Positions 50,838-53,656 are shown, counted from the stretch's first letter. The stretch is 64,000 nucleotides of DNA from Escherichia coli (GCF_003991155.1 NZ_CP031294.1); one strand, 5' to 3'. The notes: a model not told the origin generated them from the sequence alone. Made by a program: numbers and translations.

Positions 50838-52400
50838 ATGAAAATGACAAGTATTCAACAACGTGCAGAGCTTCATCGCCAGATCTGGCAAATTGCTAAC
50901 GATGTCAGGGGTTCAGTCGATGGATGGGATTTTAAGCAGTACGTTTTGGGCGCGCTTTTTTACCGTTTTATCAGCGAAAATTTTTCCAGTTATATTGAAG
51001 CCGGTGATGACAGTATCTGTTATGCGAAACTGGATGACAGCGTAATTACTGATGACATTAAAGACGATGCCATCAAAACTAAAGGCTACTTCATCTACCC
51101 CAGTCAGCTTTTCTGCAACGTAGCTGCGAAAGCAAATACTAATGACAGACTGAATGCAGATTTAAACAGCATCTTCGTTGCTATCGAAAGTTCTGCTTAC
51201 GGTTATCCTTCAGAAGCTGACATCAAAGGTTTGTTTGCTGATTTCGATACCACCAGTAACCGCCTGGGTAACACCGTTAAAGATAAAAATGCCCGCTTGG
51301 CTGCGGTTCTGAAAGGGGTTGAAGGGCTAAAACTTGGTGACTTCCATGAACATCAGATTGACCTGTTCGGTGACGCCTATGAGTTCCTGATTTCTAACTA
51401 TGCGGCGAATGCCGGTAAGTCCGGCGGCGAGTTCTTTACACCGCAGCACGTCTCTAAGCTGATTGCACAACTGGCTATGCACGGGCAGACCCACGTTAAC
51501 AAAATCTACGACCCGGCAGCAGGCTCCGGTTCGCTGTTGTTGCAGGCGAAAAAACAGTTTGATGACCATATCATCGAAGAAGGTTTTTTTGGTCAGGAAA
51601 TCAACCATACGACCTATAACCTGGCGCGTATGAACATGTTTTTGCACAACATCAACTACGACAAGTTTGATATCAAGCTGGGTAATACACTGACTGAGCC
51701 GCACTTCAGAGATGAAAAACCGTTTGATGCCATCGTTTCTAACCCGCCGTATTCGGTGAAATGGATTGGCAGCGATGACCCGACGCTGATTAACGATGAA
51801 CGTTTTGCCCCGGCTGGCGTTCTGGCCCCCAAATCCAAAGCTGACTTTGCGTTTGTATTACATGCGCTGAACTATCTTTCGGCCAAAGGTCGCGCTGCGA
51901 TTGTCTGCTTCCCAGGCATTTTTTACCGTGGCGGCGCGGAGCAGAAAATCCGTCAGTATCTGGTCGACAATAACTATGTCGAAACCGTGATTTCACTGGC
52001 ACCGAATCTGTTCTTTGGCACCACTATTGCCGTCAATATTCTGGTGCTGTCTAAACATAAAACGGATACCAAAGTTCAGTTTATTGATGCCAGCGAACTG
52101 TTCAAAAAAGAGACTAACAACAACATTCTGACCGATGCTCATATCGAACAGATTATGCAGGTATTTGCCAGCAAGGAAGATGTTGCTCATCTGGCGAAAT
52201 CTGTTGCGTTTGAGACTGTTGTCGCGAATGACTATAACCTGTCGGTGAGCAGCTATGTGGAAGCGAAAGATACTCGCGAAATTATCGATATCGCTGAGCT
52301 GAATGCTGAGCTGAAAACCACGGTCAGCAAAATCGACCAGTTGCGTAAAGATATTGATGCGATTGTTGCTGAGATTGAAGGTAGCGAGGTACAGGCATGA
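50838..52400 (+). CDS. hsdM: type I restriction-modification methyltransferase subunit HsdM (type IC, EcoR124-family)
   Basis: [25 protein letters not shown]... An AdoMet-binding region and a catalytic SNPPYSVKW (NPPY) motif are present. The stop overlaps the hsdS start. Confidence 0.9.
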
Positions 52401-53656
52401 GCGAGCTGAGTTATCTGGAAAAACTGCTGGATGGGGCTGAGGTTGAGTGGGTAGCATTAAATAAATTAGCAACTTTTTTAAAAGGGAAGTCTTTACCTAA
52501 AGAAAAAATAACTCCAGATGGCAATAGATATTGTATTCATTACGGTGAGCTTTTCACTCATTATGGTCCCATAATTGACAAAGTATGCTCAAAAACAAAC
52601 CAAGCAATCAATGAGTCAATTCTATCTGAAAAAAATGATGTTCTAATGCCAACGTCAGACGTTACACCAAGAGGTTTGGCTACAGCTAGTTGCATTCAAG
52701 AAAGTGGCGTTATTTTAGGCGGCGATATTTTGATTATTAGATGCTCTGGTGTTGATGGTAGATATCTAAGTAATTTCATAATAAATAACAAAAAAAAGAT
52801 ATTGCAAATGGTTAAAGGTTCTACTGTTTATCATTTGTATGCTAAAGATATAGGTAAATTACTTATCCCCATCCCTTGCCCCAACAACCCGGAAAAGTCG
52901 CTGGCTATCCAGTCTGAAATCGTCAGGATTCTGGATAAATTTACTGCACTTACCGCTGAGCTTACCGCTGAGCTTACCGCTGAGCTTAGCATGCGTAAAA
53001 AACAATACAACTACTATCGCGACCAGTTGTTGAGTTTTAAAGAGGGTGAGGTTGAGTGGAAAGCTTTGGGGGAAATTGGTGAAGTTCGTATGTGTAAACG
53101 AATCCTAAAATCACAAACATCTTCTGAGGGAGAGATTCCATTTTATAAAATTGGGACATTTGGTAAGGAACCCGATTCCTATATATCTAGAAAACTATTT
53201 AATGAATTTAAAGAAAAATATAGTTATCCTAAAGTTGGCGAAGTATTGATTTCTGCCAGTGGGACCATCGGCAGGACTGTTATATTTGATGGTAGGGAAT
53301 CATATTTCCAGGATAGCAATATTGTCTGGATTGAAAATAATGAAAAAATAGTTTTAAATAAATATTTATTCTATTTCTATAAAATAGCAAAATGGGGAAT
53401 ATCTGAAGGTGGAACTATTAAAAGACTTTATAATGATAACTTAAGAAAACTTATGATACCAGTACCATTTCCTGATTCTCCTGAAAGATCGCTAGTTGAA
53501 CAACAAAAAATAGTGAAATTACTGGATAAATTTGATGCTTTGACCAATTCCATCACCGAAGGTCTTCCGCGTGAAATCGAGTTGCGCCAGAAACAATACG
53601 AGTACTATCGTGATTTACTGTTCAGTTTTCCCAAACCTGAAACTATCAGTAACTAA
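52397..53656 (+). CDS. hsdS: type I R-M specificity subunit HsdS (type IC) with three TAEL repeats in the central conserved region
   Basis: Conserved N-terminal ([13 protein letters not shown]), central (…[37 protein letters not shown]…) and C-terminal (…[37 protein letters not shown]…) blocks. Two AT-rich target-recognition domains lie between them. Confidence 0.9.
52949..52984 (+). repeat. 12-bp tandem repeat (CTTACCGCTGAG) x3 encoding the TAEL spacer repeat of HsdS
   Basis: Read directly: cttaccgctgag cttaccgctgag cttaccgctgag. Confidence 0.9.

Follow-up and report, generated by a model that had tools for sequence, protein, structure and literature searches.

Type IC restriction-modification enzymes of the EcoR124 family carry short TAEL repeats in the specificity subunit HsdS, and a change to three repeats is a textbook route to an altered target site. 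The question raised by the hsdM-hsdS-hsdR operon studied here, which lies in a 64,000-nucleotide stretch of Escherichia coli DNA (NZ_CP031294.1; the whole stretch is called the window below), is what its three-repeat hsdS represents, and how the third repeat was acquired. Neither the mechanism nor the family nor the allele itself is new, and what we add are natural pairs of sibling alleles with two or three repeats, together with a caveat on how spacer length is read. Very probably, the window holds an intact type IC operon carried as accessory cargo by an SSU5-like E. coli phage-plasmid, and its three-TAEL hsdS is the less frequent form of a common allele, longer by one turn, with a changed spacing of the methylated adenines and an extra unit that arose at the repeat. 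The features on which the argument depends, including the two target-recognition domains (TRDs) with their GC content overall and at third codon positions (GC3), are as follows.

50739–50837, + strand: leader upstream of hsdM, presumed promoter region of hsdM-hsdS; left end of the DNA common to different plasmid contexts (BLAST)
50838–52400, + strand: hsdM, 520 residues, N6-adenine methyltransferase subunit (Pfam N6_Mtase and HsdM_N)
52397–53656, + strand: hsdS, 419 residues, specificity subunit (Pfam Methylase_S, twice)
52454–52864, + strand: TRD1, residues 20–156; GC 0.316, GC3 0.20
52865–53077, + strand: conserved central block, helix D1 of the coiled coil, which aligns with residues 139–210 of EcoR124 HsdS; GC 0.469
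52949–52984, + strand: CTTACCGCTGAG x3, encoding TAEL x3; a partial fourth unit continues to 52988
53078–53482, + strand: TRD2, residues 228–362; GC 0.309, GC3 0.20
53483–53656, + strand: conserved C-terminal block (helix D2) with the stop codon, nearly the same as the C-terminus of EcoR124 HsdS
53657–53777, + strand: hsdS-hsdR intergenic gap, 121 bp, in which TTAACA-18-TATTTT at 53684–53713 is a candidate promoter for hsdR alone (consensus scan)
53778–56894, + strand: hsdR, 1038 residues, translocase/endonuclease subunit (Pfam HSDR_N, SWI2_SNF2/ResIII, T1R_D3-like and EcoR124_C)

Families of type I enzymes are defined by complementation, cross-hybridization and antibody cross-reaction; as far as sequence can tell, the locus is an intact operon of type IC, the EcoR124 family, with a different specificity subunit. 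The genes stand in the order hsdM-hsdS-hsdR with the 121-bp gap before hsdR, and the hsdM stop codon overlaps the hsdS start in the tetranucleotide ATGA, so that the first two genes would be translationally coupled. HsdM differs from EcoR124 HsdM (7bst_D) at 5 of 519 aligned residues (99% identity), and HsdR aligns over its full length, 1–1038, with EcoR124I HsdR (2w00_A; 2273.7 bits) and ends in the C-terminal domain PF12008, EcoR124_C (E = 1.1e-71). The alignment with EcoR124 HsdS (7bst_A, 404 residues) and the Pfam matches give HsdS the expected layout of a conserved N-terminus, TRD1, conserved helix D1 with the TAEL repeats, TRD2 and conserved helix D2, the N-terminal, central and C-terminal blocks being near-identical to those of EcoR124. 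The central region is also 88–96% identical at the amino acid level in many other loci. A first-pass annotation, made from the DNA alone, had placed an EcoR124-family HsdS at 52397–53656 with a perfect threefold 12-bp repeat at 52949–52984 encoding three TAEL units; the 419-residue reading frame is present, the matches of all three subunits support the family, and Tandem Repeats Finder and translation agree on the repeat.

Tandem Repeats Finder describes the array as period 12, 3.3 copies and 100% matches over 52949–52988, with CTTACCGCTGAG as consensus, and it is the sole high-scoring tandem repeat in the 50–56 kb region. Since EcoR124 itself uses the same 12-mer, as seen in published mutagenesis primers (PMC10644984), the repeat is not a chance feature. 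The crystallized subunit 7bst_A is one TAEL shorter, with a single gap of 4 residues exactly at one TAEL. The linker from LDKF to RxKQY measures 17 residues in helix D2, and with three repeats that of D1 measures 17 as well, which agrees with the view that three repeats appear optimal (Loenen et al. 2014, PMC3874165). Near the 3′ end of hsdM, at 52293–52315, is another perfect 12-bp repeat, GCTGAGCTGAAT x1.9, which encodes AELNAEL and resembles the TAEL-coding repeat; among six cassettes compared, it showed no variation in length.

The carrier of the operon was identified by collinear similarity. The tail-gene region, at positions 1249–24000 of the window, shares 97.8% identity with Escherichia phage Cyrano and 80.8% with Salmonella phage SSU5, and the nearest plasmids are non-mobilizable IncFIB plasmids of E. 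coli of about 110 kb that carry metG and apbC. Judged by this resemblance, the host element is an SSU5-like phage-plasmid. Cyrano also matches the window at 44000–50175 and 56982–64000 (98%), with about 5.9 kb of unrelated genes between, and because both flanks match while the DNA between them differs, the intervening segment is a variable cargo site.

50176–56981, no strand assigned: variable cargo segment of the SSU5-like phage-plasmid, with a theta-like gene and hsdMSR; counterpart at 6177–12066 of the Cyrano sequence compared

At the same site Cyrano carries Ea22/Eae/Eaa-like genes and a DUF4942 protein.

Two- and three-repeat alleles

The hsdS of the window is 100% identical at the nucleotide level to the genes of RefSeq protein WP_094310829.1 on the plasmids pWP5-S18-ESBL-08_2, pYUSHP31-2 and p15ODDR, so that RefSeq already contains this very allele, which is widespread. 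The exact 419-residue protein was not present in a collection of 15 billion proteins. A search of 5,426 complete E. coli genomes returned 39 records with a full-length match, of which 35 span 1248 bp, corresponding to two units, and three span 1260 bp, corresponding to three units, one of the latter being interrupted by IS1; the remaining match, of 1244 bp, is a frameshifted copy. PLSDB, with 31 carriers, gives the same two- and three-unit picture, and several carriers of the two-repeat form seem to have been assembled from long reads. The two-TAEL form, WP_001293038.1 (found for instance on OW849379.1 and pYUSHP6-3), has identical TRDs and is nucleotide-identical to the present allele apart from one 12-bp unit, and it is about ten times commoner in the complete genomes (35 against 3). 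The present allele is thus the longer and rarer version of a common one, and the two stand to each other as EcoR124I stands to EcoR124II, with identical TRDs, no single-nucleotide polymorphisms (SNPs) and a single 12-bp unit of difference.

We considered whether three repeats are unusual as such, reading the repeat number from the length of the LDKF-RxKQY linker (13 residues for two repeats, 17 for three), and rejected the idea, as about 40% of family members have three. Loci from IMG/VR comprise 39 with two repeats and 27 (of 66) with three and no other length, and loci from species-representative genomes comprise 38 with two, 29 (of 70) with three and one each with one, four and five. Within E. 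coli, cluster representatives are unfit for counting three-repeat alleles, since at 90% identity the present HsdS is represented by a partial protein with two repeats; copies were therefore counted with a 76-bp DNA query spanning the repeat, by the span of each match. Of the 1,042 matching records, 60 were sampled at even steps, and 33 copies had two repeats and 23 had three. What is peculiar to the window is rather that its particular TRD pair usually carries two.

Closely related plasmids show how small the background difference between the two forms can be. Over the 24.5 kb from 39500 to 64000, the window differs from its best backbone match, OW849379.1, by 3 SNPs, the 12-bp unit and one 7-bp repeat unit. 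The latter belongs to an intergenic heptanucleotide tandem repeat, (CGATAGT)n, at 57364–57393, where the window has one unit more than OW849379.1 (indel at 57371–57377), and it is the only other indel in this comparison. In a second pair, unrelated to the first, pYUSHP31-2 has three units and pYUSHP6-3 two, and the differences over 19.3 kb amount to 3 SNPs, 1 single-base indel and the 12-bp unit. The same pairing of two and three repeats is found with other TRD combinations: the HsdS of the C-SRM-3 plasmid (426 residues) and that of pEcQE11-421-2 (422 residues) form such a pair with 0 SNPs, and p88COLEC-2 (405 residues) forms another with a 401-residue cluster representative, with one substitution. 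Because the near-isogenic plasmids and the two other TRD combinations both show the pairing, the array appears to gain or lose units again and again, about as often as the few point mutations arise by which near-isogenic plasmids differ. The annotation had called the repeat a hotspot of length change, and this is supported by the occurrence of the same allele in both lengths, 2 and 3 units, even between near-isogenic plasmids. The extra unit would most likely stem from slipped-strand mispairing or unequal crossing-over at the repeat, occurring repeatedly in nature, and spontaneous interconversion of EcoR124I and EcoR124II through unequal crossing-over at the same repeat has been reported (PMC3874165).

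The alleles thus offer a natural counterpart to EcoR124I/II, in which one TRD pair circulates among the plasmids and phage-plasmids of E. coli with two or three TAEL repeats, as do at least two further pairs. As clustering at 90% identity hides the repeats, restriction barriers or methylomes that are deduced from the similarity of hsdS genes need to be accompanied by repeat counts.

Target-recognition domains and adenine spacing

Both TRDs are markedly poorer in GC than their surroundings: against the values listed above, the central conserved block has GC 0.469 and GC3 0.55, hsdM 0.458 and 0.51, hsdR 0.440 and 0.49, and the whole window has a GC content of 0.460. This is what the annotation had noted, and its approximate limits for the two domains agree with the measured ones within about 40 bp. 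It had also proposed that the domains are exchanged like cassettes, and both are indeed found with many different partners. Among the 120 closest cluster representatives at 90% identity, 94 have TRD2 in common with the present HsdS (at least 99% identity) and a different TRD1, and in 20 TRD1 is in common (99–100%) and TRD2 differs. The AT-rich TRDs are modules swapped by recombination within the conserved blocks. TRD2 is found at 72–83% amino acid identity in HsdS proteins of Halothiobacillus, Methylophaga, Sulfurovum, Chitinophagaceae, Leptotrichiaceae and Clostridia, and several of the distant relatives are located in low-GC DNA; a foreign, low-GC origin of the TRDs fits this distribution. 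A marine Methylophaga HsdS has relatives of both domains (TRD1 at 69% identity, TRD2 at 81%), for which reason the pair may be older and broader than the E. coli plasmids. A locus of Methylophaga pinxianii has TRD2 at 79%.

The half-sites recognized by the two domains differ from those of EcoR124. The present system is like that of plasmid R124 (EcoR124I/II; PDB 7BST and 2W00) in HsdM, HsdR, gene order, the conserved blocks of HsdS and the 12-bp repeat CTTACCGCTGAG, and like EcoR124II in having three TAEL repeats, its pair of two- and three-repeat alleles mirroring EcoR124I/II. However, both TRDs are unrelated to those of EcoR124, with no meaningful alignment, so the half-sites should not be GAA and RTCG; the system also lies on an SSU5-like phage-plasmid rather than on R124. 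Searched alone against the sequences in the PDB, TRD1 and TRD2 matched only through the conserved flanks of EcoR124 HsdS, apart from a weak match of TRD2 to 1yf2. No solved HsdS has these TRDs, from which half-sites might be read, and neither domain matched any characterized enzyme that was compared. Literature searches by RefSeq protein accession, carrier strain and plasmid name found no recognition sequence, whether for WP_001293038.1 or for WP_094310829.1, and E. coli methylome papers gave no motif for the present allele.

EcoR124I, with two TAEL repeats, recognizes GAA N6 RTCG and EcoR124II, with three, GAA N7 RTCG, and hybrid enzymes follow the same rule (PMC3874165). What the repeat number fixes is the interval between the methylated adenines: two repeats give 7, and three give 8 (Loenen et al. 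2014, PMC3874165). The safe prediction by this rule is that the present allele would recognize the same two half-sites as its two-repeat sibling, one bp further apart, with 8 rather than 7 nucleotides between the methylated adenines. Such a longer spacing would give a distinct specificity of restriction and modification. In EcoR124II, the engineered removal of one TAEL, which converts it to EcoR124I, alters which phages are restricted (PMC10644984).

How the interval relates to the spacer as it is usually written can be seen from the plasmid pIP1206, which carries a related system in its last 43 kb and whose HsdS (427 residues) has three TAEL repeats. RM.EcoST101IX, reported to be 100% identical to this system in nucleotide sequence, is assigned the motif CC(m6A)G N6 RTTG, in which m6A is N6-methyladenine (ST101 methylome preprint, bioRxiv 10.1101/2020.06.07.138552). 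If, as elsewhere among type IC sites, the methylated T is the first one in RTTG, the interval consists of G, N6 and R and comes to 8, so the motif would fit three repeats even though it is written with N6. RM.EcoST101IX and Eco067II (pIP1206-type F plasmids, Tn6602; CCAG N6 RTTG) resemble the present system in their EcoR124-type hsdM-hsdS-hsdR order, three TAEL repeats and an IS1-flanked phd/doc context, which is also that of the pYUSHP31-2 copy of the present allele, but differ in the TRDs, HsdS identity being 43% overall with matches mainly in the conserved blocks. Two further enzymes of type IC, EcoDXXI (TCA N7 RTTC) and EcoprrI (CCA N7 RTGC), are also described as having three TAEL repeats and an interval of 8 between their methylated adenines (PMC3874165). 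The number of Ns in a written motif is thus no reliable guide to repeat number. The first-pass prediction of an N7-type spacer was right about the three repeats and agrees with a predicted spacing one step longer, but was too literal in that the repeats set the adenine interval and not the written number of Ns; nor would an N6 motif by itself speak against three repeats, as had been proposed, given that the three-TAEL pIP1206 system is itself reported with N6.

Competing explanations

Several points weigh against the reading of the locus as an intact operon whose hsdS gained a unit at the repeat and thereby an altered site. Methylome data for the carrier strains were not found in the literature, so that function is predicted from sequence. 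Scans for promoters and terminators gave site counts at or below the shuffled expectation, and the gap before hsdR holds one weak sigma-70-like match, of a kind not above chance in this region. The N6 motif of the three-TAEL pIP1206 system means that the written N count is not predictable from repeat number. Finally, hsdS is identical in all carriers, and the spread of a single three-repeat allele is therefore not formally separable from independent slippage.

The last point leads to the alternative that survives best, namely a single origin of the three-repeat state, followed by spread of the entire hsdS allele from plasmid to plasmid through homologous recombination, the repeat being no recurrent hotspot. 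Transfer of the allele by recombination clearly occurs: the hsdS genes of the window, pYUSHP31-2, pWP5-S18-ESBL-08_2 and p15ODDR show 0 SNPs, whereas hsdM differs by 26–44 SNPs and hsdR by 53–132 SNPs between backgrounds, and the identity of hsdS in three such diverged backgrounds implies that it was recombined into them. However, in two backbones the nearest two-repeat relative differs within the cassette only by the 12-bp unit (one of the pairs has an hsdR SNP besides); two unrelated TRD combinations form such two- and three-repeat pairs as well; two of the five differences between the window and OW849379.1 are changes of tandem-repeat units; and EcoR124I and EcoR124II are known to interconvert at this very repeat (PMC3874165). 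Though a single origin would account for the identical genes, the near-isogenic pairs and parallel TRD combinations favour recurrent local events, and we regard it as unlikely.

It could also be that the system is silent or inactive, a remnant of past cargo in which the repeat number has no phenotypic consequence. Inactivated copies of the same allele do exist, namely the hsdS interrupted by IS1 in CP029421 and the frameshifted copy of 1244 bp, and the promoter scan, as said, is not above chance. Yet the three reading frames are full length and collinear with the crystallized EcoR124 proteins, hsdM and hsdS are coupled through their ATGA overlap, and hsdM-hsdS-hsdR is intact in several distinct genetic contexts, which together make decay of the system quite improbable.

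If the operon is active and the repeat changes length recurrently, one may ask whether these changes are more than neutral slippage. Repeated gain and loss of one TAEL unit might be maintained by selection as a low-frequency toggle of specificity, a form of bet-hedging in competition between elements, which we hold to be a rather doubtful proposition. Were it true, sibling mobile elements or hosts would restrict each other's DNA and escape the modification they share. The stronger version, in which the repeat is a programmed, high-frequency switch of a phasevarion and not an occasional mutational hotspot, seems very improbable: in near-isogenic plasmids, length changes are common compared with point mutations, and TAEL tracts are taken up in this connection in a survey of type I systems (PMC7383803), but there are just 2–3 copies of the 12-bp unit (three in the window), the sampled loci have nearly all two or three with single cases of one, four and five, and there is no invertase, shufflon or long simple-sequence tract, nor an extra hsdS copy or recombinase in the cassette. 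Assemblers can miscount tandem repeats, but an artefact of assembly or sequencing can practically be dismissed for an array of 36–40 bp that lies well inside single reads, keeps the reading frame, and recurs as an identical three-repeat gene in independent records from Japan, China and Switzerland as well as in the IS1-interrupted copy.

Cassette contexts and neighbouring genes

The cassette is not confined to one kind of element, being also present in P1-like phages and in an SSU5-like phage of Klebsiella. Homology between the different contexts begins some 100 bp ahead of hsdM, at 50739 in the BLAST alignments with pYUSHP31-2 and pYUSHP6-3 and at 50744 in that with AP022163, and ends with the stop codon of hsdR at 56894. 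On pYUSHP31-2 and pIP1206 the cassette adjoins P1-type phd/doc, with pdcB, inside an IS1-flanked unit. This IS1-flanked hsdMSR unit is found in pYUSHP31-2, pYUSHP6-3 and pIP1206, and the ST101 preprint names it Tn6602. Immediately beyond its downstream IS1 lies a pair of genes for a SMODS nucleotidyltransferase and an S-4TM effector, a defence module resembling a cyclic oligonucleotide-based antiphage signalling system (CBASS), which places several defence genes close together.

Upstream of the operon, the window encodes a full-length methionine-tRNA ligase (metG; 46418–48451, − strand) and an Fe-S carrier NTPase of the ApbC/Mrp type (48609–49709, + strand). Both genes are conserved in Cyrano and in the plasmids of about 110 kb, and they are an unusual cargo for a phage. 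Directly upstream of hsdM are genes for an S24 peptidase (49746–50135, − strand) and a homologue of the DNA polymerase III theta subunit (50234–50485, − strand), which presumably resemble humD and hot of P1. Further downstream, at 62318–62911 on the − strand, lies a phage N6-adenine methyltransferase gene, annotated in OW849379.1 and in Cyrano, which might bear on self-protection or anti-restriction. Besides the TRDs of hsdS, the only stretches of the window in which GC over 400 bp falls to 0.335 or below are 1–1326 and 38362–38923.

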